A DNA stretch of 64,000 nt, taken from assembly GCA_018241685.1 (NCBI GenBank), contig JAFEDJ010000019.1, positions 1,265 through 65,264 of the forward strand, written 5' to 3'. The notes under the pieces are model-generated. The model made no database searches. It saw nothing but the letters and a program-made list of their open reading frames with translations, and was not told the origin of the DNA. A program made the translations under genes and the position numbers. This stretch comes from Pseudomonadota bacterium. GTDB taxonomy: Bacteria > Pseudomonadota > Gammaproteobacteria > Burkholderiales > Rhodocyclaceae. Positions 1,311 through 26,426 of this stretch are shown piece after piece. Position 1 is the stretch's first letter. Each line of letters opens with the position of its first letter.

Positions 1311-1400
1311 GCATAGCGTTTTTGCATGTCCGAATTTCAAGTAATGCAGACAGCGTCGAGTCGGCCGGTTTTTTACTGGATGCAGCGGATGATCGGTCGG
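1311..1400 (-). mobile_element. Possible degenerate long attC-like site 2
   Basis: Minus strand ...ATCCG..CCAGTAA...TTACTTG..TCGGAC...CAAAAAC-GCTATGC; inverted arms AGTAA/TTACT and TCCG/CGGA; R' GCTATGC (GTTRRRY with T>C); lies between two cassette genes. Confidence 0.4.
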
Positions 1401-1577
1401 AGTCCGGGATTTGACCGAGAAACAGTAGAACATCAAGGACTGAGGATCGACTTCGCCGTGCATCGTTGCTGTGCCTGTAGTTCGGGGGATAAAGCTAGGA
1501 GAGGTGAATGGCCTGTTCGTTCACTGGGTACTGTATCAGTCGAGAGATCAATTACATTGTTGTATATAAGCCACGCT

Positions 1578-2135: not shown

Positions 2136-2146
2136 AGGGAAATGAC

Positions 2147-2215
2147 CTCTATCATTTGACATGAGCGGCATGGTCGGGCTTGCCGGGACATATCCGCTCG
2201 ATGGAAGGTGGCGTC
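2147..2215 (-). mobile_element. Degenerate attC-like site 3
   Basis: Minus strand CCTTC-CATCGAG-CGGATATGTCCCGGCAAGCCCGACCATGCCG-CTCATG-TCAAAT-GATAGAG. It is a classic attC hairpin with the extra base in L''; R' is GATAGAG; it abuts the kwaB stop codon. Confidence 0.7.
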
Positions 2216-3128: not shown

Positions 3129-3713
3129 CTACTTGTCCCTGAGTATGTAGAAGTCTTGGACGGTCTGCCCCATCTGCTCACCGATCTCAAGGTTGCCGTA
3201 CTTAAGAACGCGAACATCCTTTTCTATGCCATTGATAACAATCGTTGCTTCGTACAGTTTCCACCCGAATATCAGAAGGAGCGGATTCATGAGGATTTGT
3301 CCCGACTTCAGTGTTATGGCAAACATCCAGAGTAGAAAGACTCCGAATCCTATGAGTTTCTGTGGATCACCGTAGGCTATTCCCATGAACGAAACAACGT
3401 ATGGGAAGGTATAGTTAATGATCTCGTTTGGTGTCGCCTTCATCCGCTTTACGTCTATCAAGAACGGACATCTAATTCTCAGAAGGGAACTCTTCGCGAG
3501 AAGCGTCGCCGCCGCAGTGACCGCTAGAAATGAGATGGATAAGACCGGGTTATCAAACGGTACGAACAGACATTCACTAGCTTTGAGGCTTGTGGTTGTA
3601 CAAAAAGGACGTGCCCACCACTGTGCCGATATGTCCTGCATCGCAAGAATGATCGCGAGTGGAAAGTAGGAGCCTAAGAAGATTAGGAGCCCTGGTATCA
3701 GGTGAAATTGCAT
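3129..3713 (-). CDS. kwaA: Kiwa anti-phage membrane protein KwaA
   Basis: About 4 TM segments; SYFPL, NYTFPYVVSF and NPLLLIFGWKLYE motifs; coupled to kwaB. Confidence 0.8.
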   Translation of the reverse strand: MQFHLIPGLLIFLGSYFPLAIILAMQDISAQWWARPFCTTTSLKASECLFVPFDNPVLSISFLAVTAAATLLAKSSLLRIRCPFLIDVKRMKATPNEIINYTFPYVVSFMGIAYGDPQKLIGFGVFLLWMFAITLKSGQILMNPLLLIFGWKLYEATIVINGIEKDVRVLKYGNLEIGEQMGQTVQDFYILRDK

Positions 3714-3758
3714 TGCAGGATGTTAATATTCAAGCGTGGTTCAGTGGTTGTTTGTGAT

Positions 3759-3826
3759 GTCCAACGTCTGAGTTTACTGGTCTGCGCGGTTTGTTGCGCA
3801 GGTCCGGTGGCGTGATGAGGTGGGGA
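3759..3826 (-). mobile_element. attC-like site 4 (intact GTT core)
   Basis: Minus strand CCCCAC-CTCATC-ACGCCAC-CGGACCTGCGCAACAAACCGCGCAGACCAGT-AAACT-CAGAC-GTTGGAC; same repeat family as site 1; R' is a perfect GTTRRRY. Confidence 0.7.
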
Positions 3827-3858
3827 TCGGTACGGAAAATTATTAGCCGTATACTTAG

Positions 3859-4341
3859 CTATTCATCAAAGCCATGAATAATTGACTTGGCAATACAGGT
3901 GCAATCGATGGCAACTCCTGGGAGTAGATAACCTGCTTCCGTAAGCAGCCCAAGGTTTGATTCGAATCGCTGACCAGAAAATCGGGCATGCGACGCATTG
4001 GGGTTGTTCTTCCTTAAACCGCAGGTGGTTGCTGTCCAAATGCATTTGGAAATGCCAAGGTCTTGTTTTCGTACTTGTTCTTTTCGCGCGGCGGCGATAT
4101 TGACGAAGTATCTGGATACAGCTGCGGCCTGACTCTTCTCCAGCTTGTAGCGTGCCGTAACTTCCTTTGCGAGCGAATGTAGATCTCGACCACATTCATA
4201 CACCAAAATACCAAATTCGCTTTTTTCGTCAAATTGAAGAAGAGAAAAATAATCCTTGGCTATCTGCACAGATTGCTCCGGCGAAACCTTGAGTCTCTCT
4301 TCAAAGTCTTTGGCAGTGTATGAAGGGTATCCATTTGGCAT
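3859..4341 (-). CDS. Hypothetical protein with a MuF/SPP1-gp7-like (phage minor head protein) C-terminal motif
   Basis: CIW.......H..FSGQRF...G......LPG..IDCTC...II matches the MuF pattern Y.W...H...G..F...PG..INCRC. Confidence 0.55.
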   Translation of the reverse strand: MPNGYPSYTAKDFEERLKVSPEQSVQIAKDYFSLLQFDEKSEFGILVYECGRDLHSLAKEVTARYKLEKSQAAAVSRYFVNIAAARKEQVRKQDLGISKCIWTATTCGLRKNNPNASHARFSGQRFESNLGLLTEAGYLLPGVAIDCTCIAKSIIHGFDE

Positions 4342-5757: not shown

Positions 5758-5819
5758 ATGGAATATACATCCCTTGTCATCATGCGTGCTCTGATTGAGT
5801 GGGCTCGAGGGAGAAGTCG

Positions 5820-8800
5820 ATGTTGCGTCATCTATCGCGTCGCGGTTTCGGGCTGGTGCCCTTGCTGCTGGTGCTTGCCGCGCTCGCTGCGGCGGGTGTG
5901 TTTGTCGCCAAGACGCAGCAATCCGATGAGGCGGAGTCTGTGGACGGGCCGTTCCAGATTGCGGATTTCGCCAATCGTGACTTCGAGGGCTCGCCGGCGC
6001 TGGCGCTGAGCTTCACGCATCCGATGGATGCGCGGCGGGATTACGACGGGGCGATCCAGGTGTTCGAGATGCCGCCCCGCACGGGTGAGGCCAAGCCGCA
6101 CACTCAAGACGACGAGGACGCCGACAATCAGGGCGAGGGCACGCCCGGCAGCGGCAATCCGCAGGTCAGTACGGCCCCGGCGGATGTGGCGATCGACGGC
6201 GGCAAGCTGGTGAAGGGCGCCTGGGTGGTGGGGGACAACCCGCGCATCCTGTATTTCCCGCACATCAAGCCGCAAACCCGTTACGTGGTGCGCGTGGCGG
6301 CGGGGCTGCCGTCGAAGGCCGGCCAGACGTTGGCGGAAGCCAGCAGTTATTCGGTGGTCACCGCCGTCGTCTCGCCGGCCTATTACTTCGCCAGCCGTGG
6401 CATGGTGCTGCCGGCCAAGCAGAACGGCGGGCTGCCGGTGGTCACGGTCAACGTGCCGGAGGTGGATGTCCAGTTCCTTCGCGTCAAGCCGGACCAGTTG
6501 CCACGCTTCCTCGACAAGGTGATCAGCGGGCCGCGTCCGCAGCGGGGCAAGCGCCAGCAGAATAACGACGGCTACGATTACGATGAAGAGTACGACGGCG
6601 ACGAGGACTGGCGCGCGACCGATCTCAAGGGGGCTATCGACAACTGGTCGCTCGACAATTTGCACAGCCTGACGGAGAGCGTGTTCACCGGCCGCTTCCT
6701 GACCGAGCAGAAGCCCAACAAGCGCAACGTCACTTTCCTTCCGGTCGAGGACATCAAGGAGCTTCGCGAGCCCGGCATCTACATCGCGGTGATGAGCCAG
6801 CCGAACCGTTTCCGCTACGACTATCAGGTCACTTATTTCTATGTCAGCGATCTCGGCTTGAGTACCCGGCTGTTCGCCAAGGGGGCCGATGCCTACGTCA
6901 GCTCGCTGACCACCGGCAAGGCGATGGCGGGGGTCGAGGTGGCCTGGATGGATGAGAACGCCAAGGTCCTGGCGCGCGCCGAGACCGACAGCAACGGACG
7001 GGCCCCCTTTGCGGAGCGGCCGGCTGCCGCCAAGCTCATTCTGGCGCGTAACGGCCAGCAGATCTCGTTGATTGCACTGAAGGAGCCGGCGCTGGATCTT
7101 TCGGAATACGACATCGCGGGCCTGCCCGGTCGGCCTGTGCGCTTGTTTGCGTACTCCGGTCGCAACCTGTATCGACCGGGCGAGAGCTTCGATCTGTCCG
7201 TATTGGCGCGGGATGCGGACGGCCGCGCCGTACCGCCACAGCCGATCCAGGCCATCCTCAGGCGGCCGGACGGCAAGAGCCAGTTCACTGCCACCTGGCA
7301 ACCGGACGGCAAGCTGGGGGGCTATTACCAGAACCGCATCGCGCTGCCGGTGGATGCGCCGACAGGCTCATGGACGCTGGAGCTGCGTGCCGACCCGGCC
7401 GACAAGCTGGCCACCACCAGCTTCCGTTTCGGCGTCGAGGAGTTTTTGCCGGAGCGCATGAAGCTCGATCTGGCCAGCAAGCAGGCCACGGTGTCGCCCA
7501 ATGACACGCTGACCATCGCCGTCAAGGGTGCTTATCTCTACGGCGCGCCGGCGGCTGGCAACCAGTTGCTCGGGGTTGCCGTCTTCGAGCGCCAGAAGAA
7601 TCCGCTGGCTCAGAAGCTGCCCGGTTTCGAGTTTGGCGACACCAATGAGGAGAGCCAGCGCCAGCGCGTGGAACTGGACCAGAGCCAGCTCGACGAGAAC
7701 GGTGAGCTGGCGCTCGACGTGGATCTCGCGCCGGCCAAGGACAAGCGGTCGCCCTACACCGTGCGGACCACGCTGAGCCTGCTGGAGAGCGGCGGCCGGC
7801 CGGTGGTGCGCAATTTCGAGCGGGTGATCTGGCCGGCGCCGGTGTTGGTGGGTGTCCGCCCGCTGTTCACCGGCGACTACGCCCGCGAAGGCAGCATCGC
7901 GCAGTTCGAGGTGGTGCGCGCCAACGCCGAGGGCAAGTTGAGCGCAGGCAGCGGGCTGCCGGTGCGCCTGTTCCGCGAGAACCGCGATTACTACTGGCGC
8001 TTCGACGACCAGCGCGGCTGGCATTCGGGTTTCACGGAGACCGACGAACTGGTGAACACCGCGAGCGTCAGCATTCCCGATGGCGGACGCGGCAAGCTCG
8101 GTGTGCCGGTCAAATACGGGCGTTACCGCCTGGAGATCACCGATCCGGCCACGCAGCAGACGACGAAATACCGCTTCTACGCCGGCTGGAGCGCCCGTGG
8201 CGACGAAACCCAGGGCGTCCGTCCCGATCGTGTCGCACTGAAGTTCGACAAGCCGGCCTACCAGGATGGCGAGACCGCCAAGCTGAGCATCACGCCGCCG
8301 CACGCCGGTGAGGCGCTGATCACCGTCGAGGCGGACAAGACCCTGTGGGTCAGGCGCATCCCGGTGGCCCTTGATGGCACGACGGTCGAGATTCCGGTGG
8401 ACAAGGCGTGGAAGCGCCACGACCTGTATGTGTCGGTCAGCGTGCTGCGGCCGGGCAGTGCTGGCGAAAAGGTCACCCCGGCGCGGGCCTTGGGCCTGGC
8501 GCACCTGCCGCTTGAACGGGGCGAGCGCAAGCTGGCGGTGAGTCTCGATGCGCCGAAGAAGATGCTGCCGGACACGCGCCTCAAGGTGAAGGTCAAGGCG
8601 CCCGGCGCTGCCGGCCAGCAGGCGGTGGTCACGCTGTCCGCCGTCGATGTGGGCATCCTCAACATCACGCGCTACACGACGCCCGACCCGCACGGCCACT
8701 TCTTCGGCAAGCTGCGTTACGGCGCCGACCAGTACGACGTGTACGGCCGTCTGATCGAGAAGATGGGCGGCCAGAAGGGCAAGCTCAAGTTCGGTGGCGA

Positions 8801-10964
8801 TGCCGCGCCGAAGGCGACCAAGAGCCTGCCCAAGAAGGTGCGCCTGGTGGATCTGTTCTCCGGGCCGGTGCTGCTCAACGCGCAGGGCGAAGCCGAGATC
8901 GCCCTCGACGTGCCTGATTTCAACGGCACGCTGCGCCTGATGGCGGTGGTCGCGGCACCCGAGAAGTTCGGCAACGCCGAGGCGGAGACGGTTGTTGCCG
9001 CGCCGCTGGTGGCCGAGCTGATGACGCCGCGCTTCCTGACGGTAGGTGACAACGCCACCATCGCCCTCGACCTGCACAACCTGTCCGGTGCGGCGCAGAA
9101 GCTCAAGGTGCGCATCGAGAATGCGGACGGCCTGAAGATCCAGAACGCCGAGCGCGAGCTGGACCTCAAGGATCAGCAGAAGCAGACGCTGCGCTTCCCG
9201 CTCGAAGCGGGCAACGCCTTCGGCCTGACCGATGTGCGGGTCCACGTCAGCAGCGTTGCCGGCCTCAAGCTGGAGCGCAGCTTCGGCCTGCAGGTCCAGG
9301 CGGCGACGCCGCAACAGCAGGTGCTCAAGCTGCTTGCCGTCGGGCCGGGCGAGACGGTGGAGGTGAAGGACGCGGAACTGGGCGGCTTCATCCGGAGCAC
9401 CGTGCAATCGCATCTGGTGCTCTCCAACAAGGCGCCGATCGACGTGCGCAGCGCCATCCAGGGGCTGCTGACCTATCCCTACGGCTGCGCAGAGCAGACG
9501 ACCAGCACGGCCTACCCGCATGTGCTGATCGACGAGGAGGGGGCCCGGCTGTTCGGGCTCAAGGCCTACACCCGCGCGCAGCGGGAAGACATGCTGGAGA
9601 AGGCCATCGCCCGGCTTGGCGCGATGCAGGCGCCGAACGGCGGCTTCAGCCTGTGGGGCAATGTGTCCGAGTACCAGTACTGGCTGTCGGCCTATGTCGG
9701 CAACTTCCTGCTCGATGCCCGCGAACAGGGCTTCCAGGTGCCGGAGGCGATGCAGAAGAAGACCCAGGAATTCCTGCTCAAGTATCTGCAGGAAGGCGTG
9801 GCCGGTCTGCCGACCGGCAAGCTGAGCTACAACGAGAACGGCTGGCAGGATTACCGCTTCGGCGGTTCCGGCCGTTTCGGCGTGCTTGCCTACGGCGCCT
9901 ATGTGCTGGCTCGTGAATCCAAGGCGCCGCTGTCCACGCTGCGCCAGATGTTCGAGGTCCGCAGCCAGGCGCACTCGGGGCTGGCCCTGGTGCAGCTCGG
10001 CCTGGCGCTCAAGCTGATGGGCGATGAAACCCGTGCCCAGACGGCGCTCGCCGAAGGTGTGAAAAAGAGCCGTGACAATGGCTACTGGTGGGGTGACTAC
10101 GGCAGCCCGCTGCGGGATGCGGCGCTGTCCTACGCGCTGCTCGACCGCCACAAGGTGAAGGTCGACGGCCGTGACAATCTGGTTGCCGTTGCTGCCGCCG
10201 AACTGGGCAAGAACCGTTACACCAGCACCCAGGAGAAGCTCGCGCTGTTCCTGCTCGGCCGCAACTTCACCAAGGCCGGCGAAGGCGAGGGCGGGTGGAC
10301 GGCGGAAGTGCTCGGCAAGGACACGCCGGAAGTCATCAACGGTGCTGGCACGCTGATCCGGCCGCTGTCGGCAACGGCCTTGCAGGGCGGCGTTCGTATC
10401 CGGAACACCTACAAGGACAAGCTCTACCTGCAACTCAGCCTGAGCGGCAATCCGGCGAAGATGCCGGCCAACCGCGACGACGCCATCGCATTGAGCCGCG
10501 ACCTGTTCGAAGCCGACGGCACGCCGCTGAAGAGCCGCACGCTGAAGGTTGGTGAATCGGTCATCGTGCGCATCAAGGTCAATCCGCACAGCTGGGTCAA
10601 TACCGGCATGGTGGTGGACCACATCCCGGCCGGCCTGGAGATCGAGAACCTCAATATCGTCCAGGGTGAAGGCATGGGCAGCACGACGATCGAGGGCATC
10701 AACCCGGCCGAGGCGATGCAGGACCCGCGCATCCAGCACGTCGAGTTCCGCGATGACCGCTTCGTGGTGGCCGCCCGGCTGCACGGCAAGCTCAGCCTGT
10801 TCTACCGCGCACGGGTCGTCACCCCCGGCAAGTTCGTCTTCCCACCGCTGTACGCCGAGGACATGTACCGCCCGGATGTCTATGGCCTTAGCACTGGCGA
10901 GGCGACCCTGACGGTGAGCGACGGCAAGGACAAGCCGGCTGCCGCAGCGCCGGCCAAACCGTAA
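5820..10964 (+). CDS. yfhM: Bacterial alpha-2-macroglobulin (YfhM/MG2 family)
   Basis: About 1715 aa; YRPGE MG2 motif, VEEFLPERM, thioester motif YPYGCAEQ, C-terminal MYRP; paired with pbpC. Confidence 0.95.
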   Translation: MLRHLSRRGFGLVPLLLVLAALAAAGVFVAKTQQSDEAESVDGPFQIADFANRDFEGSPALALSFTHPMDARRDYDGAIQVFEMPPRTGEAKPHTQDDEDADNQGEGTPGSGNPQVSTAPADVAIDGGKLVKGAWVVGDNPRILYFPHIKPQTRYVVRVAAGLPSKAGQTLAEASSYSVVTAVVSPAYYFASRGMVLPAKQNGGLPVVTVNVPEVDVQFLRVKPDQLPRFLDKVISGPRPQRGKRQQNNDGYDYDEEYDGDEDWRATDLKGAIDNWSLDNLHSLTESVFTGRFLTEQKPNKRNVTFLPVEDIKELREPGIYIAVMSQPNRFRYDYQVTYFYVSDLGLSTRLFAKGADAYVSSLTTGKAMAGVEVAWMDENAKVLARAETDSNGRAPFAERPAAAKLILARNGQQISLIALKEPALDLSEYDIAGLPGRPVRLFAYSGRNLYRPGESFDLSVLARDADGRAVPPQPIQAILRRPDGKSQFTATWQPDGKLGGYYQNRIALPVDAPTGSWTLELRADPADKLATTSFRFGVEEFLPERMKLDLASKQATVSPNDTLTIAVKGAYLYGAPAAGNQLLGVAVFERQKNPLAQKLPGFEFGDTNEESQRQRVELDQSQLDENGELALDVDLAPAKDKRSPYTVRTTLSLLESGGRPVVRNFERVIWPAPVLVGVRPLFTGDYAREGSIAQFEVVRANAEGKLSAGSGLPVRLFRENRDYYWRFDDQRGWHSGFTETDELVNTASVSIPDGGRGKLGVPVKYGRYRLEITDPATQQTTKYRFYAGWSARGDETQGVRPDRVALKFDKPAYQDGETAKLSITPPHAGEALITVEADKTLWVRRIPVALDGTTVEIPVDKAWKRHDLYVSVSVLRPGSAGEKVTPARALGLAHLPLERGERKLAVSLDAPKKMLPDTRLKVKVKAPGAAGQQAVVTLSAVDVGILNITRYTTPDPHGHFFGKLRYGADQYDVYGRLIEKMGGQKGKLKFGGDAAPKATKSLPKKVRLVDLFSGPVLLNAQGEAEIALDVPDFNGTLRLMAVVAAPEKFGNAEAETVVAAPLVAELMTPRFLTVGDNATIALDLHNLSGAAQKLKVRIENADGLKIQNAERELDLKDQQKQTLRFPLEAGNAFGLTDVRVHVSSVAGLKLERSFGLQVQAATPQQQVLKLLAVGPGETVEVKDAELGGFIRSTVQSHLVLSNKAPIDVRSAIQGLLTYPYGCAEQTTSTAYPHVLIDEEGARLFGLKAYTRAQREDMLEKAIARLGAMQAPNGGFSLWGNVSEYQYWLSAYVGNFLLDAREQGFQVPEAMQKKTQEFLLKYLQEGVAGLPTGKLSYNENGWQDYRFGGSGRFGVLAYGAYVLARESKAPLSTLRQMFEVRSQAHSGLALVQLGLALKLMGDETRAQTALAEGVKKSRDNGYWWGDYGSPLRDAALSYALLDRHKVKVDGRDNLVAVAAAELGKNRYTSTQEKLALFLLGRNFTKAGEGEGGWTAEVLGKDTPEVINGAGTLIRPLSATALQGGVRIRNTYKDKLYLQLSLSGNPAKMPANRDDAIALSRDLFEADGTPLKSRTLKVGESVIVRIKVNPHSWVNTGMVVDHIPAGLEIENLNIVQGEGMGSTTIEGINPAEAMQDPRIQHVEFRDDRFVVAARLHGKLSLFYRARVVTPGKFVFPPLYAEDMYRPDVYGLSTGEATLTVSDGKDKPAAAAPAKP

Positions 10965-10967
10965 GGC

Positions 10968-13313
10968 ATGACGCAACGCGCAGCATGGTGGATTGCCGGG
11001 CGCGGATGGCTGAGACGCCGTCCGCGCTGGCAGTGGGGTGTGTTGCTCGCGCTGCTCGTATTGGCTGGGCTGGACCATGCTTTTCCACCGCCGGTGCCCG
11101 GCCGTGATGCGCCGAACGCGCTGCTCATCGTCGCCCGCGACGGCACACCGCTGCGGGCCTTTCCGGATCGCGACCATGTGTGGCGCCATCCGGTGGCGCT
11201 GGCGGATGTATCGCCGCTCTATCTTGAGGCGCTGGAGCGCTACGAGGACCGCTGGTTCCGCTGGCATCCTGGCGTCAATCCGCTGGCCCTGACGCGGGCG
11301 GCGTGGCAGTGGCTGCGCCATGGGCGCATCGTCTCCGGCGGTTCGACGCTGACCATGCAGGTCGCCCGCATCATCGAGCCGACGCCGCGGACGCTGCTTG
11401 GCAAGGGCCGGCAGATCCTGCGCGCGCTGCAGCTCGAGCTGCACTATTCGAAGGACGAGATCCTCGCCCTCTACGTCAATTACGCGCCGATGGGCGGCGT
11501 GCTCGAAGGGGTCGAGGCGGCCAGCCGGGCTTATCTCGGCAAGCCGGCCAAACGCTTGAGCCACGCGGATGCGGCGCTGCTGACCGTGCTGCCGCAGATG
11601 CCGTCGCGCCTGCGGCCGGATCGTCAGCCGGCCCGGGCGCGGGTGGCGCGCGACAAGGTGGTGCACCGCATGGCCGGTGTGTGGCCGGACAGCGACATCC
11701 GCGATGCGCTGCAGGAGCCGATCATCGCCCAGACGGCGCGCGATCCGCTGCTTGCGCCCTTGCTCGCCGAGCGGCTGCGCAAGGACGCGCGTGGCCGGCA
11801 GCGTATCGACACGACCATCGACGCCCAGACCCAGCAGACCGTCGAGCTGCTGCTCACCAGCCGGCTCGCCGCCTTGCCGCCGCGGGTGTCGATGGCTGCG
11901 CTGGTGGTGGATAACGCAACGCTGGAGGTTCGCGCTTATGCGGGCTCGGCCGATTTCGGCGATACCGACCGCTTCGCCTTCGTGGACATGGTGCGTGCGT
12001 CGCGGTCGCCCGGCTCGACGCTCAAACCCTTCCTGTACGGGCTGGCGCTCGATGAAGGGCTGATCCATTCGGAGTCCCTGCTTGCCGATGTGCCGCAATC
12101 CTTCGGCGGCTATCAGCCGGGCAATTTCCAGCAGTCCTTCCACGGGGCGGTTAGCGTGTCCGAAGCCTTGAGCAAGTCCCTCAACGTGCCGGCCGTCGAG
12201 GTGCTCGACCGGCTGGAGCCGGGCCGTTTCGTCGCCGCCCTGCGGCGGGGTGGCCTGAAGCTGGATTTTCCCAAAGGCGAAGCGCCCAACCTGTCGGTGA
12301 TCCTCGGCGGTGCCGGTACGACGCTCGAGCAACTGGTCGGCGCCTACACGGCCTTTGCCCGCGAGGGGGTTTCCGGTAAGCCGCGTTACCGAACGGATGA
12401 ACCGCTGGTCGAACAGCGCATGCTGTCGCCCGGCGCGGCCTTCATCATCCGCGATGTGCTCGAATCCGGCGGACCGGTGGGCCGCGCGGTCGAGCAGGGG
12501 CCGGGCATCCGCCGCGGCATTGCGTGGAAGACCGGGACCAGCTTCGGCTTCCGCGATGCGTGGTCGATCGGCGTGTCGGACCGCTATACGGTCGGTGTGT
12601 GGATCGGCCGCCCGGACGGCACGCCGAACCCCGGTTTCTTCGGCGCCAACATCGCGGCGCCGCTGTTGGTCGATATCTTCTCGGCAGTGGATGGTCAGCC
12701 GGCTACGACCCGAACGCCGCCGCCTTCCGTGCATCAGGAAAAGATCTGCTGGCCGCTCGGCACGCGTTTTCAGCCGGAGGAAGAGGCCCTCTGCCATCGC
12801 CAGGCTATCGCCTGGGTGCTCAACGACACCGCGCCGCCAACCTTTCCCGACCGGCTGCGCAGCGGCGAGATGCGCTACGCCTACGAGGTCGACGCGGTCA
12901 GCGGCTTGCGCGTCACGGCGGCGTGCAGCACCCGCCCGCGCCGCCAGGTCGAGGCCGTGCATTGGCCGACCGCGCTGGACCCGTGGCTGAGCTCCGATCT
13001 GCGCGCCAAGGCGCAGCCGCCGGCGTGGGATGCCGGTTGTCAGAAGCAGGCCGAGCCGGACGCTGGTCTGAGCATCGTCGGTCTGAGCAGCGGTGAGGTG
13101 ATCAAGCGTCCGCGCCCTGATCAGGCGCCGGTGATCCGCCTCGAACTGCGCGGTCAGCGTGGGCAGGTTTATTGGCTGATCAACGGCCGGCTGGTCGCTC
13201 ACCGGCCCGCCACCCAGCCCTTGATTCAAACTCTGACCGAAACCGGCCGTGTCGACATCACCGCGATGGATGAGCAGGGCCGTTACGACCGGATCAGCGT
13301 CAGCGTGCGCTGA
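10968..13313 (+). CDS. pbpC: Penicillin-binding protein 1C
   Basis: EDRWF and GGSTLTMQVAR transglycosylase motifs, SxxK (GSTLKPF), SLN, KTGTS and a C-terminal PBP1C domain. Confidence 0.95.
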   Translation: MTQRAAWWIAGRGWLRRRPRWQWGVLLALLVLAGLDHAFPPPVPGRDAPNALLIVARDGTPLRAFPDRDHVWRHPVALADVSPLYLEALERYEDRWFRWHPGVNPLALTRAAWQWLRHGRIVSGGSTLTMQVARIIEPTPRTLLGKGRQILRALQLELHYSKDEILALYVNYAPMGGVLEGVEAASRAYLGKPAKRLSHADAALLTVLPQMPSRLRPDRQPARARVARDKVVHRMAGVWPDSDIRDALQEPIIAQTARDPLLAPLLAERLRKDARGRQRIDTTIDAQTQQTVELLLTSRLAALPPRVSMAALVVDNATLEVRAYAGSADFGDTDRFAFVDMVRASRSPGSTLKPFLYGLALDEGLIHSESLLADVPQSFGGYQPGNFQQSFHGAVSVSEALSKSLNVPAVEVLDRLEPGRFVAALRRGGLKLDFPKGEAPNLSVILGGAGTTLEQLVGAYTAFAREGVSGKPRYRTDEPLVEQRMLSPGAAFIIRDVLESGGPVGRAVEQGPGIRRGIAWKTGTSFGFRDAWSIGVSDRYTVGVWIGRPDGTPNPGFFGANIAAPLLVDIFSAVDGQPATTRTPPPSVHQEKICWPLGTRFQPEEEALCHRQAIAWVLNDTAPPTFPDRLRSGEMRYAYEVDAVSGLRVTAACSTRPRRQVEAVHWPTALDPWLSSDLRAKAQPPAWDAGCQKQAEPDAGLSIVGLSSGEVIKRPRPDQAPVIRLELRGQRGQVYWLINGRLVAHRPATQPLIQTLTETGRVDITAMDEQGRYDRISVSVR

Positions 13314-13331
13314 GGGCGCCGCCTCCGCGTG

Positions 13332-14429
13332 TCAGCCCTGTTGTTCAGTCGACAGCGGGTGGGTTTCCTGTTTGGGCGGGAAGATGGCCTTGTGCGCCAG
13401 ATGGTAGGCCAGCAGCAGCGGTGGCATGCGCAGCCAGTGGGCACGGATGTAGAGGCTGCGGCGTGCCAGCGGGGTGAAGCGATCGGCGGTGCTCGGGTGT
13501 TGCGGGCACAGTACGCGGGCGTAGATGCCGTCGAGCATGCGCTGGACGATGCCCGTGTCGGCGAGGCAGCGGCTGCGGGCCGCGATGCGCTCGGGGAGCG
13601 GCGTGCCGAGCAGGCGGTGGCAATAGCGCAGCGCAAGGCGCAGCGGGCCGGATAGCTGAAGTTGTGCGGCCCGTTCGAGGAGCCCGTCCCAGGCGGTGTC
13701 GTCACGGGCCAGGTGGCGCAGCAGCAGATCGAGGTCGGTGAGGTCGCGCAGCAGGTTGTCCGGTTCGCCTTCGTGGAACAGATGCGAGGCGCTGTGCAGG
13801 ATCAGGTCGGGCAGCGACAGGGTGTGCACGCCGGGCAGATCGGGTAGGGCGACGCTGGCTTCGATCAGCAGGCGGGCATCGGGTTTGAGGCGGGCGGTCG
13901 GCGGCAAGATGGTGTGGTGTACGTCGAGCGCGGAGCCGCGGAAGACATGGCGCATCGCAGGCAGTTCGTGCATCCAGCGGCGGTAGTAGCGCTGGTCGTA
14001 GTCGTCGGTGGCGGTGCTGGCCCAGCCCTTGAGCATCAGTGCGGATTCGGCATCGCCGAGGCGCTCCTTCGGCAGCAGGATGTCCACGTCGGAGAACAGC
14101 CGGCCCTGGGCGGCGGGCAGTCCGGCGGCGACGTAGGCGGCGCCCTTCAGCAGGATCACCGTGATGCCGGCCGGTTTGAGCGCCTCGCGGAGGAAGCAGG
14201 CTTCCCGCCGGATCGCGTGGCGCTGTTCGCTCGCCATCACTGCGCCGGACAGCAGGTGGTTGTGAGGCTGCTCCGGAATGTCGGCTTCGACGCCAGCGCT
14301 CTGCAGGCGCAGGAACAGCCGGCCGACCAGGTTGGCATGGCGCGCCTGGCGGACGAGCAGATCCCAGTCGGCGGTGCCGAGACGGCGGATCGATTCGGGG
14401 TGGCGGTAGGTCTCGATGAGGAGGTTCAT
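13332..14429 (-). CDS. Nucleotidyltransferase family protein (NTP_transf_5-like)
   Basis: LLKGAAY, GRLFSDVDILL and LDVH motifs; ATG at 14429 overlaps the kinase stop (ATGA). Confidence 0.85.
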   Translation of the reverse strand: MNLLIETYRHPESIRRLGTADWDLLVRQARHANLVGRLFLRLQSAGVEADIPEQPHNHLLSGAVMASEQRHAIRREACFLREALKPAGITVILLKGAAYVAAGLPAAQGRLFSDVDILLPKERLGDAESALMLKGWASTATDDYDQRYYRRWMHELPAMRHVFRGSALDVHHTILPPTARLKPDARLLIEASVALPDLPGVHTLSLPDLILHSASHLFHEGEPDNLLRDLTDLDLLLRHLARDDTAWDGLLERAAQLQLSGPLRLALRYCHRLLGTPLPERIAARSRCLADTGIVQRMLDGIYARVLCPQHPSTADRFTPLARRSLYIRAHWLRMPPLLLAYHLAHKAIFPPKQETHPLSTEQQG

Positions 14430-15346
14430 TCGGCCATGCCCTCCGCGGCGAGGCGGTCGAACACTGCAATGGCGTCGTCGAGGCGGCTGTATTCGAAGCT
14501 GTAGTTGCGCGTCCGCTCGATGATGTCTCCGACCGCCTTGAAGCCGCGTGCGCCGAGCACGTGGTAGTTCATGGCGTTGTCGGCGAGTTGCATGAAGGCG
14601 GTGCCGCTGCCCATCGGGGTCAGCGTCGCGTCGGCGCCGGCGCGGTAGCGCGGAAGCACCATCCAGGCGGGATCGGCCCATTCGCCGACGGCCTCGACGC
14701 TGGCCTGGGTCGGCGCCATCAGCGCGACGGTGCCCTTGGTGGTGTCGAGTATCGGCCGGGTGAGGAAGGCATCGGGCGCGTAGGTGCGAATGATGTCGAT
14801 GGACGCGTTCTTCAGGTTCACCGGCCGGGCGAGGCCCATGATCTGGCCGGTGTCGAGGCGGATCAGCGTGAGTTCATCGGATAACAGGCGCCAGCCCCGG
14901 TTGACCAGTGCGGCGCACAGGGTGCTCTTGCCCGACCCCGGCGGTGCCGGGAGGATGGCCGCGTGCTTGCCGCGTGCGACCGAGGCTGCGTGGATGACCA
15001 GGATGTGGTGGCAGTAGGCCGTCACGCACCAGTTCAGGCCCCATTCGAGCATCGGCAAGGCCTGGCCGCGCGGTAGCGGCGTGAACGGCTCGACGGCATC
15101 GACGATGAAACGTGCCTGCGGTGCAATCCATCGACGCAGGCCATGGCCGGGCTGGACACCGACATGGAAGTCGATGAAGGGCTTGTCGTCGATCAGCGGA
15201 TGATGGGCGTAGAGCCGGGCGAGTTCATCGGCGAGCTCGGGAATTCCGCTCTGCAGGCGGCAGTTGAACGGTCCGGTGGCCAGTCGGATACCGTCTCCAC
15301 CTAGCCGCGCGCGGAATTCAGCCAGGGAAAGATCACGAATTTTCAA
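14426..15346 (-). CDS. HprK-related kinase A
   Basis: IHAASV, Walker A PGSGKST, GWRLLSDEL and LARPVNLK motifs. Confidence 0.9.
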   Translation of the reverse strand: MKIRDLSLAEFRARLGGDGIRLATGPFNCRLQSGIPELADELARLYAHHPLIDDKPFIDFHVGVQPGHGLRRWIAPQARFIVDAVEPFTPLPRGQALPMLEWGLNWCVTAYCHHILVIHAASVARGKHAAILPAPPGSGKSTLCAALVNRGWRLLSDELTLIRLDTGQIMGLARPVNLKNASIDIIRTYAPDAFLTRPILDTTKGTVALMAPTQASVEAVGEWADPAWMVLPRYRAGADATLTPMGSGTAFMQLADNAMNYHVLGARGFKAVGDIIERTRNYSFEYSRLDDAIAVFDRLAAEGMAE

Positions 15347-15665
15347 GGGAATGGCTCGGAGCGGCCTGAATCAGGCGGGCGCCGATCAGCGCGTCGAGGG
15401 CCGCCACAACGAGTTGCCGGCAATCCTCCGGGGCTGCATCGGGCTCTTCCTGGCAGATGGCGTGGATCAATTCGTCTTCGGAGCGCTGCCGGCCGGGAAC
15501 CGACAGCTGATCAAGCACGAATCGGGTGACCGGGGCGAGCAGAAGGGTTGCACCGGCTTGTGGGTCGTAGCGGACCCACCCTTCATCTACGTCTTTCCAG
15601 AGTACATCCGCCAAGCCTTCGAACAGGGTCTCGCTGGCGGAGTACCGGATGCCGGCCGGGACCAA
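15333..15665 (-). CDS. HPr-rel-A system PqqD-family peptide chaperone (RRE-like)
   Basis: About 110 aa; W.D.DEG.V.YDP..G.T.LL followed by helical L..L...LI; sits immediately upstream of the kinase. Confidence 0.8.
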   Translation of the reverse strand: MVPAGIRYSASETLFEGLADVLWKDVDEGWVRYDPQAGATLLLAPVTRFVLDQLSVPGRQRSEDELIHAICQEEPDAAPEDCRQLVVAALDALIGARLIQAAPSHSLENS

Positions 15666-15680
15666 AAGTCAGCGTCGCTA

Positions 15681-16223
15681 TCAGGGGAGCAGCACGTAGT
15701 CGAGGTAGGTTTCCACCTGAGCTGCATTCCACGTGACGCCCAGCGTAGGCTGGTAGGCATTGGCCACAACACCGGTGTCCCACATCTTCTTGACTTCGTC
15801 CGCGCTGAAGAGCGAGGTGCTGCCGACATTGGCGCTCAGCCAGGCGGCAACGATCTTGCGTTGGATCGACGAGCCGGAGGAGAGAATCTCGCGGAATGAT
15901 TTGGTAACTGTGGAGCTGAAGACTTCGTTGAACAGCTTGTCGAGAGTGGTGTCAGTGGGATTCTGGGTGGCGTAGGTGGTCCAGAAGCTGACGCCGTTCA
16001 CTTTGGTAGAGCAGGGCGTGGTGCCGTTGCGGCTGAGATTGCCGGAAGCAGAGAAGCCCGAAGGCCGCTTGCATTCTGCGGCAAGCGCCGGAACGCTCTT
16101 GAGTGCCATCAGAACAGGAGCGCCGGCCAGACCGGTTTTTATCAGCTTGCGGCGGGACAACAAGGGCGCTGCGGCGCTGCTGCCTTGTTGTGCGACCGAT
16201 TTTTCCGAGTGCTCCAGTTTCAT
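15681..16223 (-). CDS. Tat-like secreted protein with a conserved C..PSGF.SGN.S...C motif (candidate modification substrate)
   Basis: GAGG RBS; SRRKLIK twin-Arg motif, hydrophobic stretch and PALA-A cleavage site, then CKRPSGFSASGNLSRNGTTPC. Confidence 0.75.
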   Translation of the reverse strand: MKLEHSEKSVAQQGSSAAAPLLSRRKLIKTGLAGAPVLMALKSVPALAAECKRPSGFSASGNLSRNGTTPCSTKVNGVSFWTTYATQNPTDTTLDKLFNEVFSSTVTKSFREILSSGSSIQRKIVAAWLSANVGSTSLFSADEVKKMWDTGVVANAYQPTLGVTWNAAQVETYLDYVLLP

Positions 16224-16331
16224 CCTAAACCTCTTCGTTCTGGCACCGTACGTCGGCGCGGTTGAACGTAATATAAGTACACCTGATTTACAGGGGCGTG
16301 ACATTTGCACGCTTATGTTCAAAATAGATTA

Positions 16332-16347
16332 AGCAAATTTTGTTCCG
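16332..16347 (-). promoter_or_regulatory. Putative sigma54 promoter of the kinase/PqqD cluster
   Basis: CGGAACAAAATTTGCT = GG-N10-GC with TTGC; about 110 bp upstream of ATG 16223. Confidence 0.6.
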
Positions 16348-16648
16348 CGAATTTTATAGCATACAGGATGCTGATTCAAAACGAATTTTTATGAGGTGCC
16401 GAAGAGCGTCGGAAAAAAAGGCCGGTTTGTGTAAAAAAAGTCGACGAACTTTGGCGCCAATATCTGCGGGCGTCGGGCCCCTTTGAGTTGATGATCTGCG
16501 CATGCTTCGCATGCTTCCGATGATTCATCCGCCGGTTTGCAACAGACGTCAACGACGTGTGTAGGAGGGAGCGCTCGCGGGTTTTGTTGCTGCCGGCGGG
16601 GTGAAGATGTGTGTTATCCGTCGATGGGGCCGTCGTGCGCGGAGGCGC

Positions 16649-16999
16649 TCACCCTGCCACGGCCGCCGGCGACAGTGCTGTCGCGAGTTGGCCGACCGCA
16701 CTCCAGTCGAGGGCTTGCGGCCCGCCCGGCGTCTCTACCGAAATGCCGTCCGCGCCCACCGGCGCGACGAAGATCGCGTCGCTGGCGATGGGGGACATGA
16801 AGAGTTCGGTCTCGGCGCTCTTGCCGTCCCGCACTGCGACCATCGCGAGGGCGAGGGTGTGGGCCTCGTGGGGCGTGAGGCGCACCGTGAGGGTGCTACC
16901 GACCCTCAGGGTGAGCAGGCGGCCAAGGGCACGATGTGTCGTTTCCGAGACCGAGAACGGGGGTTTGTCGGCTTCCCGACTGCCATGCGTGTCGCTCAT
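16649..16999 (-). CDS. Hypothetical protein, 116 aa
   Basis: ATGA coupling to the upstream gene; GC-rich codon usage. Confidence 0.7.
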   Translation of the reverse strand: MSDTHGSREADKPPFSVSETTHRALGRLLTLRVGSTLTVRLTPHEAHTLALAMVAVRDGKSAETELFMSPIASDAIFVAPVGADGISVETPGGPQALDWSAVGQLATALSPAAVAG

Positions 17000-17487
17000 G
17001 CGCCGTCCCCGTGGGCGAGGAGGGCTGCGATCACCGAGCCGCCGGCACCGTCTTCGGGGTCGAGTTCCTGCAGTTTGGCGAGGGCCTTGGCCGAGGCGTC
17101 CTGGTTGTCGCGGCGCAGCTCGATGAAGGCGACAGCCTTCAGGAACTGCAGCAGGAAGCGGCGCGGTGCGGCCGGGGCGGCGGAGACGTCGGCAAGGCTC
17201 CAGCCGGTCCAGGTGCGCGGCAGGGCGGCTTGGTCGGCAGCCCGGGCGAGGGCCGTGACGGCGGTCTCGAAGGCGGAGTCGAAATCGCGCAGCTTGTTCT
17301 GCAGCTTGAACAGGCAACGGTAGGACGGCAGTACGTCCGGCGCCACCTCGATGGCCGTGCGGAAGAAGGCGCGGGCGCGGGCCGGGTCGCTGGAATGGAT
17401 GGCGACGCCCTGTTGCAGCAGGGCGTTGATGTTGTCGGGTACGTCGCCGAAATCGACGGTGTCCTCGCTGAGGGCGGTAACGCTCAT
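16996..17487 (-). CDS. TPR-like helical hypothetical protein, family recalled from nif-associated loci
   Basis: GGAGAG RBS; TPR-like helices, LKAVAFIELR and DPEDGAGGSVI C-terminus. Confidence 0.65.
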   Translation of the reverse strand: MSVTALSEDTVDFGDVPDNINALLQQGVAIHSSDPARARAFFRTAIEVAPDVLPSYRCLFKLQNKLRDFDSAFETAVTALARAADQAALPRTWTGWSLADVSAAPAAPRRFLLQFLKAVAFIELRRDNQDASAKALAKLQELDPEDGAGGSVIAALLAHGDGA

Positions 17488-17526
17488 TGAACTCTCCGGG
17501 GTTTTCTGTTGTTGTCGGAGAGGTTT

Positions 17527-17542
17527 AGCAATTATGGGGCCA
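17527..17542 (-). promoter_or_regulatory. Putative sigma54 promoter
   Basis: TGGCCCCATAATTGCT = GG-N10-GC with TTGC, 40 bp upstream of ATG 17487. Confidence 0.7.
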
Positions 17543-17562
17543 GCATCGGCGGGCCCCATCCG

Positions 17563-18600
17563 TCAGCGACAGGCGAGGCGGAAGCCGGCCTCGATGGCGG
17601 CGGCGTCGAGGCGCCGGCCGATGATGACGATGGTGGTCTCGCGGGCTTCGCCTGCCTGCCACGGGCGGCCGTAGTCGAAGCCGGTGATGCGGTGGACGCC
17701 CTGAAAGACCAGGCGCCGCTCCTCGCCCCGTACGGCCAGGATGCCCTTGTAGCGCAGCATGTCGTTGCCGCTCTTGAGCAGCAGCTCTTCGACGAAATTG
17801 CCCATCAGGCCCACATCCACGTCGCCGGCGTGATGCAGCACCAGCGAGGCGATATCGTCGTTGTGGCGCACGAAGGGCTGGCGCTCTGCACCACCGCGGC
17901 GTAGGCCGCTGGGCGTGGCGTCGGCGAGGAAGCCCGGGGTGTGCTCCAGCACGTCGGTGAGCACGAAGGCGTCGAGGGTGAACAGCGCGGCGACGGCATC
18001 CGCGTCGGCGGGGACGGTGGTGATCGGCACGCGCAGGTTGATGCGGCGCAGGCGGGCTTCCAGCGCTTCCAGCTCGGCGGGTTCGACGAGTTCGGTCTTG
18101 CTCAGCAGGATGCGGTCGGCGAAGCCGATCTGCGCGGCGGCGACGCGGTTCTCGTCGAGCTGCTTGCCGGCATGGACGGCGTCCACGATGGCGAGGATGC
18201 CGTCCAGCTCGTAACGGTCGCGCACGCCTTCATCGACGAAGAAGGCCTGGGCGACGGGCGCCGGGTCGGCGAGGCCGGTGGTCTCGATGACCAGACGTTC
18301 GAAGTCCAGCTCGCCGCGGTCGCGGCGGTCGGCCAGCGCGGCGAGGGACAGGCTCAGTTCGCCGCGCACGCTGCAGCAGATGCAGCCATTGGCGAGCTCG
18401 ACGACTTCGACGGCCGGCGAACCGGCGATCAGCCCACCGTCGATACCGACGGCGCCGAATTCGTTTTCGAGTACGGCGATCTTCTTGTGGCCGGCCGTGT
18501 TCAGGTAGCGGTTGAGCAGCGTGGTCTTGCCGGCGCCGAGGAAGCCGGTGAGGATGGTGGCGCGGATCGGCGGGCGGGGAATGGCGAGGGGATTGGTCAT
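17563..18600 (-). CDS. yjiA: CobW/COG0523 GTPase (YjiA-like)
   Basis: GFLGAGKTT, ENEFG, GCICC, ETTGLADP and C-terminal RYKG/FQGVH motifs. Confidence 0.92.
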   Translation of the reverse strand: MTNPLAIPRPPIRATILTGFLGAGKTTLLNRYLNTAGHKKIAVLENEFGAVGIDGGLIAGSPAVEVVELANGCICCSVRGELSLSLAALADRRDRGELDFERLVIETTGLADPAPVAQAFFVDEGVRDRYELDGILAIVDAVHAGKQLDENRVAAAQIGFADRILLSKTELVEPAELEALEARLRRINLRVPITTVPADADAVAALFTLDAFVLTDVLEHTPGFLADATPSGLRRGGAERQPFVRHNDDIASLVLHHAGDVDVGLMGNFVEELLLKSGNDMLRYKGILAVRGEERRLVFQGVHRITGFDYGRPWQAGEARETTIVIIGRRLDAAAIEAGFRLACR

Positions 18601-25124: not shown

Positions 25125-26426
25125 TCAGGAACTGGGCTCCGCCTCCCGCAGCGTATTACGGCCCGCGCTCTTGGCTGCATACATTGCGACGTCCGCGCGT
25201 TTGAGTATTCCGTCGATGCCGTCGTCCTTGCCGGAGAACAGTGTCAGGCCGATGCTGGGCGTGCTGGTGTAGGAAAGCTCGCCCAGTCGATAGGGGCCGT
25301 TGAGCGCTTGAAGGATCTTGTTGCCGACGGCGCGGGCATTGACGATGGCTTCGTCGAAAGGACCAGACAAGTTTTCCAGCATCACCACGAATTCGTCGCC
25401 TCCGAGGCGCGCGACAGTGTCCTGCTCCCGCACGCAGCCGCGCAGGCGGCTGGCGACCTCGATCAACAACTCGTCGCCCTTGGCGTGGCCGTGGGTGTCG
25501 TTGAGATGCTTGAAACGGTCCATGTCGAGGAACATCAGCGCGCCGAACTGCTTGTTGCGCTGGTTGCGCAGTACTGCCTGCTGCAGGCGCTCGATCAGCA
25601 GGCGTCGATTGGGGAGTTCGGTGAGCACGTCGAAGTAGGCGAGATGATGGATCTCTGCCTCATGGCGCTTGCGTTCGGTGATATTGGCGATGCTGCCGAC
25701 CATTCGGGTCGGCTCGCCGGAGGCGGCCCGTTCGACGATGCGGCCACGGTCGGCCACCCACACGTAGTGTCCGCAGGTATGGCGCAGGCGGTGTTCGCTG
25801 GCGTAGACGCCGTCGCCGGCCAGGCAGGCGCCGAGCACGCGCTGTACCCTGGCGCGGTCGTCCGGATGGATGAGGTTCATGAAGGTATCCACCGGGTGGG
25901 TCAGGAAGGACATGTCCAGGCCCAGGATCCGGCACCAGGATGCGTTGTGATGGACCACGCCGTCAGGCATGCGCCAGTCCCATACTCCTTCGCCGGTGGC
26001 TTCCATCACGTAGCGCAGGCATTCCTCGCTGGCCTTCAGCTCCTGGGACAGGCTGCTGATGCGCAGGATGTTGCGGATGCGCAGCTTGACCAGCTCCACC
26101 TTGAATGGCTTGATGATGTAGTCGGCGACACCGAGGCTGAGCCCTGAGAGTTCCGATTCCAGGTCCGAGAGGGCGGTCACGAAGATGATGGGCGTCTTTG
26201 CCAACGCAGGTTCGGCCTTGAAGCGACGGCAGGTCTCGAAGCCGTCCATGCCCGGCATCATTACGTCGAGCAGGATCAAGTCGGGCGGAGACTCGCGGGC
26301 CATGACCAGGCCTTCCGGCCCCGAACTGGCGATCTGCAGGTCGAATTCCCCGGCCAGGGCCATGCCCAGGGTGTACAAATTGGTGGGCGTATCGTCGATC
26401 GCCAGGATGCGGGGTTTGCCGTTCAT
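25125..26426 (-). CDS. Response regulator-PAS-GGDEF diguanylate cyclase
   Basis: REC (DD, LLDVMMP, KP), PAS (GVWDW, IHPDD), RxxD I-site and GGDEF. Confidence 0.93.
   Translation of the reverse strand: MNGKPRILAIDDTPTNLYTLGMALAGEFDLQIASSGPEGLVMARESPPDLILLDVMMPGMDGFETCRRFKAEPALAKTPIIFVTALSDLESELSGLSLGVADYIIKPFKVELVKLRIRNILRISSLSQELKASEECLRYVMEATGEGVWDWRMPDGVVHHNASWCRILGLDMSFLTHPVDTFMNLIHPDDRARVQRVLGACLAGDGVYASEHRLRHTCGHYVWVADRGRIVERAASGEPTRMVGSIANITERKRHEAEIHHLAYFDVLTELPNRRLLIERLQQAVLRNQRNKQFGALMFLDMDRFKHLNDTHGHAKGDELLIEVASRLRGCVREQDTVARLGGDEFVVMLENLSGPFDEAIVNARAVGNKILQALNGPYRLGELSYTSTPSIGLTLFSGKDDGIDGILKRADVAMYAAKSAGRNTLREAEPSS

Follow-up and report, generated by a model that had tools for sequence, protein, structure and literature searches.

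Which molecule is modified by an HPr kinase-like protein and a nucleotidyltransferase (NTase) when both are encoded beside a PqqD-like peptide chaperone, downstream of a gene for an apparently exported protein? This question is raised by a four-gene operon at positions 13332-16223 of the window, the whole 64,000-nucleotide stretch of Rhodocyclaceae DNA analyzed here. A preliminary description, made from the letters of this segment, had proposed a modification system resembling those of peptides made by the ribosome and modified after translation (RiPPs), acting on a protein exported by the twin-arginine translocation (Tat) pathway. Three of the four genes are already known as a set. NCBIfam catalogs them as the uncharacterized HPr-rel-A system (TIGR04352 and TIGR04353 with an adjacent NTP_transf_5), in an entry that names only the enzymes and a chaperone and gives no function, substrate or product. 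The preliminary description had likewise held these clusters to be uncharacterized, and literature searches on the HPr-rel-A family names and on RiPP recognition elements (RREs) together with Tat found no paper on the system. That the trio is a named system, often located beside XrtA/PEP-CTERM exopolysaccharide genes, goes beyond that description. What appears to be new with respect to the libraries searched is the recognition of a family of Tat-signal proteins, absent from the models of Pfam and NCBIfam, as the constant fourth member of the system and its likely substrate, and the narrowing of the likely target to three near-invariant serines. The cassette probably makes an undescribed protein modification before export.

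The four genes are arranged head to tail on the minus strand and are translationally coupled. The first one, called X here (15681..16223), encodes a protein of 180 residues from an ATG at 16223 preceded by the ribosome-binding sequence AAGAGG. It is followed by the gene of a PqqD-family RRE-like protein (15333..15665, 110 residues), with a TTG start 15 nt past the X stop, and by that of HprK-related kinase A (14426..15346, 306 residues), whose start overlaps the end of the PqqD-like gene by 14 nt. The last gene encodes the NTP_transf_5 nucleotidyltransferase (13332..14426, 364 residues), and its ATG has one base in common with the kinase stop (TGATG). The coordinates, the coupling and the family assignments of the preliminary description are thereby confirmed, with the qualification that the PqqD-like protein itself falls below the family cutoffs while its orthologs match. 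The kinase is a full-length, high-scoring member of TIGR04352 (HprK_rel_A; 376.6 bits for a cutoff of 200, model positions 2-280 of 280), flanked by the PqqD-like protein and the NTase in the canonical order of the HPr-rel-A system. It carries a P-loop, PAPPGSGKST (K140), and an LSDE motif (D157/E158), and ten of its residues (E101, N105, H119, G139, K140, T142, D157, E158, K179 and N260) are invariant in 45 diverse kinases. The members of this family are numerous, with 6,688 clusters (50% identity) at E<=1e-3 and 406 at E<=1e-30, and one kinase pattern matches at least 599 stretches in the 185,579 species genomes scanned.

The NTase matches PF14907 (NTP_transf_5) with 181.4 bits for a cutoff of 31.2, and K94-G95, D113-x-D115 and D168-V-H-H are invariant across 42 homologs. 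Its AlphaFold2 model has a predicted local distance difference test (pLDDT) score of 90.3. Foldseek relates this model to minimal nucleotidyltransferase cores, with MenT1 as the best match (8an5, E 5e-4), along with ANT(2'')-Ia and LnuA and, at a weaker level, FKRP, a ribitol-phosphate transferase; the MenT1-type likeness is confined to the minimal core (TM score 0.3-0.6, 17% identity). Searched by sequence against the PDB, neither the kinase nor the NTase gave a significant match. Natural fusions also connect these enzymes. Nine representative proteins of the kinase family are about 690-720 residues long (P0143, P0145, P0146, P0154, P0169, P0176, P0213, P0220 and P0230), and the three of them that were scanned (P0143, P0145 and P0154) consist of a kinase followed by NTP_transf_5. 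Two other proteins, P0144 and P0171, join TIGR04353 to TIGR04352 in this order; as the PqqD-like and kinase genes overlap, these PqqD-kinase fusions could be frameshift or gene-calling artefacts.

The remaining member of the trio is related to TIGR04353, the HPr-rel-A system PqqD family peptide chaperone, with 24.8 bits (cutoff 35, E 3e-5, model positions 1-74 of 74), and to PF05402 with 22.6 bits (cutoff 23.4) over the full length of the model. Among 30 orthologs encoded at the same position, 29 match TIGR04353 at E<=0.01, the best at 3.6e-21. A profile built from these 30 proteins finds as its best PDB matches, over nearly the full length, TbiB1 (5v1u, E 0.003) and TfuB1 (6jx3, E 0.014), both of which bind leaders as the B1 proteins of lasso peptide pathways.

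The substrate question depends on whether X belongs with this trio. A word-indexed protein search returned only 17 homologs of X, a low count that reflects the sensitivity limit of the word index. The idea that X is a rare family was rejected, a locus-based search with a hidden Markov model (HMM) having found far more members. Every long contig bearing one of the 17 homologs contains the same four-gene cassette in a neighborhood unlike that of the window, with a Pkinase-cNMP gene upstream and the succession glutaredoxin-prmC-prfA-hemA downstream. As its flanks change from one lineage to another, the cassette moves as a single module.

The association was then scored in both directions. For the forward test, the window kinase and two alignments of diverse kinases, themselves drawn from an exhaustive search of representatives, served to collect loci from one genome per species, which were scored with an iterated X HMM. 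Their kinases share 38-97% identity and come from Zoogloea, Massilia, Thiobacillus, Nitrotoga, Methylococcaceae, Malonomonas and metagenome-assembled genomes (MAGs) of Planctomycetaceae and Nitrospirota. An open reading frame (ORF) of the X family was detected in 178 of the 186 fetched loci, and in 176 of these 178 (176/186 overall) it lies on the same strand, directly upstream of the PqqD-kinase-NTase genes. Two Sedimenticola genomes have X 2.7 kb away on the opposite strand. Three apparent misses of the first pass were explained by a divergent X subgroup. Eight loci lack X, and in seven of them the contig ends less than 400 bp upstream of the kinase. The eighth, a Nitrosomonadaceae MAG (L085, 5000-8000), has the kinase and the NTase without X and PqqD upstream, and is the sole real exception among the assessable loci.

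For the reverse test, a hand-made degenerate pattern, back-translated from CKxPSGFSxSGN and thus covering the window's own motif subgroup, was run over the 185,579 species genomes. Of its 56 matches, 51 belong to ORFs of the X family; the other 5 are due to chance, for about 4 expected from the information content. The kinase gene is found downstream in 46 of the 46 X genes followed by at least 570 bp of DNA, and the NTase gene likewise in all those followed by at least 2.5 kb. The preliminary description had assigned the 180-residue Tat-signal protein to the trio and had suggested the co-occurrence of the motif gene with the trio as a check. This co-occurrence is observed in both directions, and a trio commonly devoid of X was not seen, the one real exception being that of L085.

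No other gene accompanies the cassette so faithfully. Clustering of the flanking ORFs in 146 non-redundant loci yields X, PqqD, kinase and NTase as the only universal neighbors, the NTase being present in 144 of them. The distance between the X stop and the kinase start (median 320 nt, interquartile range 295-335) corresponds to the size of the PqqD gene, and therefore leaves no room for a hidden small precursor. In about 180 fetched loci the four genes recur as a unit within varied genomic surroundings, which places this arrangement far beyond chance, and the same quartet is present in at least several hundred bacterial species. About 23% of the non-redundant loci (about 33 of 146, including L044, L095 and L099) have XrtA/PEP-CTERM exopolysaccharide genes directly beside the cassette. 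These encode an export protein (TIGR03027, 246 bits), a chain-length determinant (TIGR03007, 624 bits) and an outer-membrane protein (TIGR03016); at L044, about 100 bp separate the export gene from the X start. The window cassette itself is not located beside such genes. A peculiar arrangement was noticed at L189 (5650-7084), a Burkholderiaceae MAG with two tandem, diverged X genes, both bearing CKxPSGFSxSGN, before a single PqqD-kinase pair; it resembles multi-precursor RiPP clusters.

X itself has no match to any model of Pfam or NCBIfam. Its sequence contains SRRKLIKTGLAGAPVLMALKSVPALAA-E-CKRPSGFSASGNLSRNGTTPC, exactly as quoted in the preliminary description, which had pointed out the twin-arginine N-terminus and the serine-rich core bracketed by cysteines; the longer stretch reads MKLEHSEKSVAQQGSSAAAPLLSRRKLIKTGLAGAPVLMALKSVPALAAECKRPSGFSASGNLSRNGTTPC. 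Three parts can be distinguished. Residues 1-49 (16077..16223, minus strand) have the features of a twin-arginine signal peptide, with S-R24-R25-K-L-I-K, the h-region GLAGAPVLMALKSVPALAA and a cleavage site of the A-x-A type (ALA-A). Residues 51-71 (16011..16073, minus strand) form the core motif, C51-K-R-P-S55-G-F-S-A-S60-G-N-L-S64-...-C71, which is the proposed modification site. Residues 72-180 (15684..16010, minus strand) are modeled by AlphaFold2 as a compact, mostly helical C-terminal domain. The model gives no structure to residues 1-52; pLDDT is about 59 for residues 51-70, predicted to be disordered, and 75-95, mostly above 85, for residues 71-180. This C-terminal domain found no structural relative in the PDB with Foldseek (best E 3.9), and no sequence match there either.

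The conservation of X was measured on 146 non-redundant family members, whose pairwise identity is often below 35%, with the residue numbering of the window protein. The most conserved residues family-wide are the twin arginines, one cysteine and three serines just past the signal peptide. R24 and R25 are each present in 100% of the proteins, and the surrounding [ST]-R-R-[RK]-[LF] motif agrees with the Tat consensus (RR 100%, [RK] 85%, [LF] 92%), so that X can be predicted to bear a Tat-type signal. The c-region of this signal follows the pattern L-x-S-x-P-x-[LMWF]-[AG], conserved at 75-93% (Leu 88%, Ser 90%, Pro 75%, Ala or Gly at the cleavage site 93%). The core motif is conserved to the extent of 97% for C51, 92% for S55, 77% for G56, 91% for S60, 77% for G61, 71% for N62 and 95% for S64, and is invariant among close homologs; about 17 residues past S64, position 81 is a tryptophan in 84% of the proteins. 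The family signature is therefore a Tat signal, one to four residues, C-x3-S-G-x3(4)-S-G-N-x-S and a further cysteine. Among 31 close homologs, mean column conservation reaches 0.80 from the twin arginines to the end of the signal and 0.79 from cysteine to cysteine, but falls to 0.49 in the rest of the protein and 0.45 in the N-terminal n-region. It is unusual for a signal peptide to exceed the mature domain in conservation, and this would be expected if another protein reads the signal specifically.

The remainder of X is more permissive. The family ranges from 150 to 260 residues, with a median of 170 from the RR motif to the end, and its C-terminus is not conserved: serine is the last residue in 22 of the 146 homologs (15%), and the window protein ends in ...VLLP. 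The mature region most often has two cysteines, and an even number in 69% of the proteins, as expected for periplasmic disulfides. The mature domain also varies strongly across lineages (L059, L077, L082 and others), with long Ser-, Gly- or Pro-rich inserts and extra cysteine pairs; the N-proximal serine motif is fixed despite these variations. Two other readings of the motif were discarded. The conserved cysteine is not that of a lipoprotein: the position before it is taken by N, E, D, Q or V and not by G, A or S, and the distance of the cysteine from the h-region, variable by 2-13 residues, also rules out a lipobox. The region around Ser46 of HPr reads KSIMGVMS, and the likeness of 'KSPSGFLS' to it is a coincidence, the aligned serine being conserved at 34% and replaced by arginine in the window.

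The operon is represented in RNA. A single contig of 3298 nt from a biofilm metatranscriptome (run X4) spans 13285-16572 and covers all four genes, reaching 349 nt upstream of the X start at one end and 47 nt past the NTase stop at the other. A second biofilm metatranscriptome (run X9) has fragments that together cover most of these genes and leave about 14210-14500 uncovered. These contigs are consistent with one transcript for the four genes, a carry-over of contaminating DNA being possible. A consensus scan of the AT-rich region upstream of X detected a sigma-70-like promoter match, TTGAAT-17-TAAAAT (16351..16379, minus strand); the RNA contigs reach further upstream, so that this match does not fix the true start site. 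The same AT-rich region has an indel polymorphism at position 16497, the contigs of both runs being 10 nt shorter there. Assembler depth in run X9 (15900-16600 against 13300-14200) falls from about 96-164 over X to 52 over PqqD and the kinase and to 13 over the NTase, which would fit a precursor transcript more abundant than those of the enzymes, contig depth being a poor measure of this. An Rfam scan of 13000-17600 gave no match.

On the basis of these observations, a four-component system is proposed in which a protein is modified before its export, by RRE-guided serine phosphorylation, elaboration by the NTase and Tat export; this proposal is considered to lie just on the probable side. X would be made in the cytoplasm, where its Tat signal peptide would double as a leader. 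The PqqD-family RRE would bind the conserved signal/leader region (L-x-S-x-P-x-L-A) beside the cleavage site, and would present the adjoining unstructured C-x3-S-G-x3(4)-S-G-N-x-S segment to the enzymes. HprK-related kinase A, with ATP, would phosphorylate at least one of the near-invariant S55, S60 and S64, after which the NTP_transf_5 enzyme would elaborate the phosphoserine with a phosphodiester-linked sugar or a nucleotide-derived group, by analogy with PsmN of the pseudomycoidin cluster. The kinase and the NTase are expected to use nucleoside triphosphates, and any modification must hence precede export; by inspection, neither these two enzymes nor the PqqD-like protein has a signal peptide at its N-terminus. 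The modified X, by then folded and bulky, would exit by the Tat pathway instead of Sec, signal peptidase I would cut off its 'leader', and a disulfide between C51 and C71 would probably close a loop around the modified serines in the periplasm.

Such a scheme would explain the lack of a dedicated protease or transporter in the cassette, as export would be left to Tat and trimming to signal peptidase I. It would also account for the invariance of the twin arginines, for the conservation of the signal peptide, for the fusions and for the disappearance of both X and PqqD at L085. The interpretation given in the preliminary description is borne out in part. Conservation and co-occurrence support well the view of X as the substrate of the trio, and of the cysteine-bracketed serine motif as its business end. 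From the precedents of paeninodin and pseudomycoidin, we infer a phosphorylation followed by an elaboration of the phosphate; the binding of the leader by the RRE, the acceptor serines and the export by Tat are predicted by similar comparisons. The more specific version of the proposal combines a Tat signal serving as a RiPP-type leader, an RRE directing a kinase and an NTase to place a phosphodiester group on serines of a folded protein, Tat export and signal peptidase trimming; this full combination is put forward tentatively, as a real possibility that stops somewhat short of being probable.

The closest known systems are lasso peptide clusters that encode tailoring enzymes. HPr-kinase homologs of such clusters phosphorylate a serine of the linear precursor (PMC8498205). 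The pseudomycoidin protein PsmN, described as an 'uncharacterised NTP transferase', was modeled on ANT(2''), is inactivated by D134A/D136A and is required for the addition of one or two 162-Da hexoses on the phosphate (PMC6993621). The precedents invoked by the preliminary description, namely lasso clusters with an HprK-like serine kinase and a nucleotidyltransferase, are thus real (PMC8498205, PMC6993621). Like the paeninodin (PadeK) and pseudomycoidin (PsmK/PsmN) clusters, the window encodes together an HPr-kinase homolog, an NTase-fold protein and a PqqD/B1 RRE, and ANT(2'')-Ia is matched both by the window NTase with Foldseek and by PsmN with Phyre2 (PMC6993621). The B1-like character of the RRE, with the profile matches to TbiB1 and TfuB1, is a lasso-like feature in its own right. 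The co-localization of X with an RRE and tailoring enzymes, and its conserved leader and core, are RiPP-like.

The analogy made with lasso clusters holds for this set of kinase, NTase and RRE, but not for the acceptor: the candidate serines of X are internal and N-proximal, whereas those of lasso substrates are C-terminal. Unlike lasso clusters, the window has no lasso cyclase, no B2 (transglutaminase-type) protease among the neighbors of the cassette and no ABC (ATP-binding cassette) exporter. The absence of cyclase and B2 protease had been noticed in the preliminary description, and neither gene, nor a remnant of one, is found in any of the 146 non-redundant loci. The short precursor of lasso clusters (about 40-60 residues) is equally missing, X having 180 residues and the interval between X and the kinase being filled. 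After cleavage, X would keep about 130 residues with a folded domain, as compared with about 20 for a lasso peptide, and its leader is a Tat signal peptide, presumably cut by signal peptidase I, which differs from a lasso leader. With cyclase, B2 protease and short precursor all absent, the cassette is not a lasso cluster; it may be seen by analogy as a case of RRE-guided kinase/NTase tailoring carried over from lasso peptides to an exported protein. Lasso B1 proteins bind a Y-x-x-P-x-L leader motif, of which the L-x-S-x-P-x-L pattern in the c-region of X is reminiscent.

Two further comparisons are instructive. The Tat proofreading chaperones TorD, DmsD and NapD share the proposed logic, since a dedicated protein holds one cognate twin-arginine signal until maturation is done. 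They differ from the present case in that the PqqD-like fold, a winged-helix RRE, is unrelated to that of TorD or NapD, in that maturation would be covalent instead of consisting of a cofactor insertion, and in that the binding is here a proposal. SynChlorMet (ScmC HprK-like, ScmD PqqD-like) and HprK-related kinase B (GAK) are weak relatives of the kinase, with 22 and 18.5 bits, and of the PqqD-like protein, with 19 bits, all far below the cutoffs of these families. These systems are also uncharacterized peptide-modification cassettes with an HprK-like protein, accompanied by a PqqD-like partner in SynChlorMet alone (ScmD), and both lack a Tat protein of the X kind. SynChlorMet and GAK cassettes carry radical SAM or ATP-grasp partners.

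Several points weigh against the proposed mechanism. Its chemical steps are predicted by analogy, and the assignment to Tat is a prediction from motif and conservation. Characterized lasso kinases use a C-terminal serine, and since the C-terminus of X is not conserved the target would here have to be internal. PsmN may itself make the donor substrate instead of transferring the group (PMC6993621). The PqqD-like protein of the window stands just under both curated cutoffs, and a mirror-tree comparison of PqqD with the leader, core and domain distances of X revealed no specific co-variation (partial r 0.09, with PqqD near saturation at a mean distance of 0.77).

These points leave room for other explanations. 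X could be the substrate of another chemistry, in which serine is activated, eliminated to dehydroalanine and linked by a thioether to the conserved cysteine, or in which serine is directly AMPylated or UMPylated by the NTase, the kinase acting at another place or serving as a phosphorylase. Activation of serine by phosphorylation is known from the class II-IV lanthipeptide synthetases. The family signature of one cysteine (97%) and three serines (above 90%), usually with a second cysteine, provides the raw material of a lanthipeptide, and the NTase fold is generic, its best structural matches (MenT1, ANT(2'') and LnuA) being true nucleotidyl transferases. Such a chemistry is nevertheless unlikely: neither a lyase nor a cyclase domain is detected by Pfam or NCBIfam in the four proteins, periplasmic disulfides explain the cysteines equally well in view of their even numbers, and the sole characterized pair of a kinase and an NTP_transf_5-type enzyme yields a phospho-hexose. 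Another possibility, judged improbable, is that X is not the substrate at all, the trio acting on some other peptide or on a small molecule, for example a precursor of exopolysaccharide, and X being a co-regulated periplasmic binding, receptor or matrix protein. The adjacency to XrtA/PEP-CTERM genes speaks for it, as does the well-folded C-terminal domain of X, unlike a typical RiPP precursor. However, 77% of the loci are not beside exopolysaccharide genes, the cassette and its borders contain no further conserved ORF, and a PqqD/RRE protein implies a peptide or protein ligand. Moreover, the conservation of X peaks in the signal peptide and the unstructured Ser/Cys segment, not in the domain, and X and PqqD were lost together where the kinase and the NTase stay (L085).

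The kinship with lasso clusters might also suggest a decayed lasso cluster that lost its cyclase and protease and has no coherent present function, as PqqD/B1-like, HPr-kinase-like and NTP_transf_5-type genes are all known from such clusters and the PqqD profile is closest to lasso B1 proteins. This is very improbable in view of four intact genes, conserved over about 150 non-redundant loci with invariant catalytic residues and covered by metatranscriptome contigs, of the lack of any cyclase or B2 remnant, and of the nature of X, a Tat-signal protein of 150-260 residues quite unlike a lasso precursor. The MenT1 toxin as best Foldseek match of the NTase (8an5, E 5e-4), together with a Kiwa and TIR defence island about 10 kb away in the window, evokes instead a toxin-antitoxin or anti-phage module built around a MenT/AbiEii-like NTase toxin. 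We give this idea hardly any credence, given that PADLOC matches none of the four cassette proteins, that the likeness to the toxin is limited to the minimal core, that the cassettes reside in housekeeping or exopolysaccharide contexts and not in defence islands, and that known toxin-antitoxin systems offer no place for a Tat-exported protein and an RRE.

If the more specific version of the proposal is true, bacteria would have a class of protein modification that is new, and an RRE pathway would for the first time rely on the general secretion machinery as its protease and exporter. RRE-guided tailoring would then extend beyond small peptides to exported folded proteins, and a reason for the use of Tat other than cofactor insertion would be at hand. 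The biological role is possibly linked to the exopolysaccharide or floc matrix, as suggested by the frequent adjacency to XrtA/PEP-CTERM genes, and the system may reveal a new phosphodiester-linked protein modification relevant to the biofilm or floc matrix of wastewater bacteria such as Zoogloea. The HPr-rel-A trio has so far been an orphan, with named enzymes and no substrate. Once it is tied to a single conserved Tat-protein family without annotation, and within this family to a short stretch of about 14 residues that includes three near-invariant serines, the system can be put directly to the test.

The surroundings of the cassette in the window comprise, on one side, the genes of an alpha-2-macroglobulin (1721 residues) and of PbpC (Transgly, Transpeptidase and BiPBP_C domains), a pair located at 5799-13313 and convergent with the cassette; a 1953-residue antisense ORF at 7368-13229 is an artefact of high GC content. 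The other side has an ORF of 187 residues (16996-17559), a CobW-type GTPase and CstA. This ORF, upstream of the cassette, belongs to no Pfam family, has a faint match to SctY, a type III secretion chaperone (20 bits, cutoff 70), and is not kept beside the cassette in other genomes. The start of the window is occupied by a low-GC island (270-4341; GC 0.49-0.55, against about 0.65 elsewhere), with a complete Kiwa anti-phage system (KwaA at 3129-3713, PADLOC 238 bits; KwaB at 2214-3128, 408 bits) and a TIR-domain protein at 270-1235. It is probably a horizontally acquired defence island. Finally, signaling genes are clustered at 25125-32015: the first (25125-26426) encodes a response regulator bearing a GGDEF domain, and two others (26423-30037 and 30015-32015) each encode a large hybrid histidine kinase.

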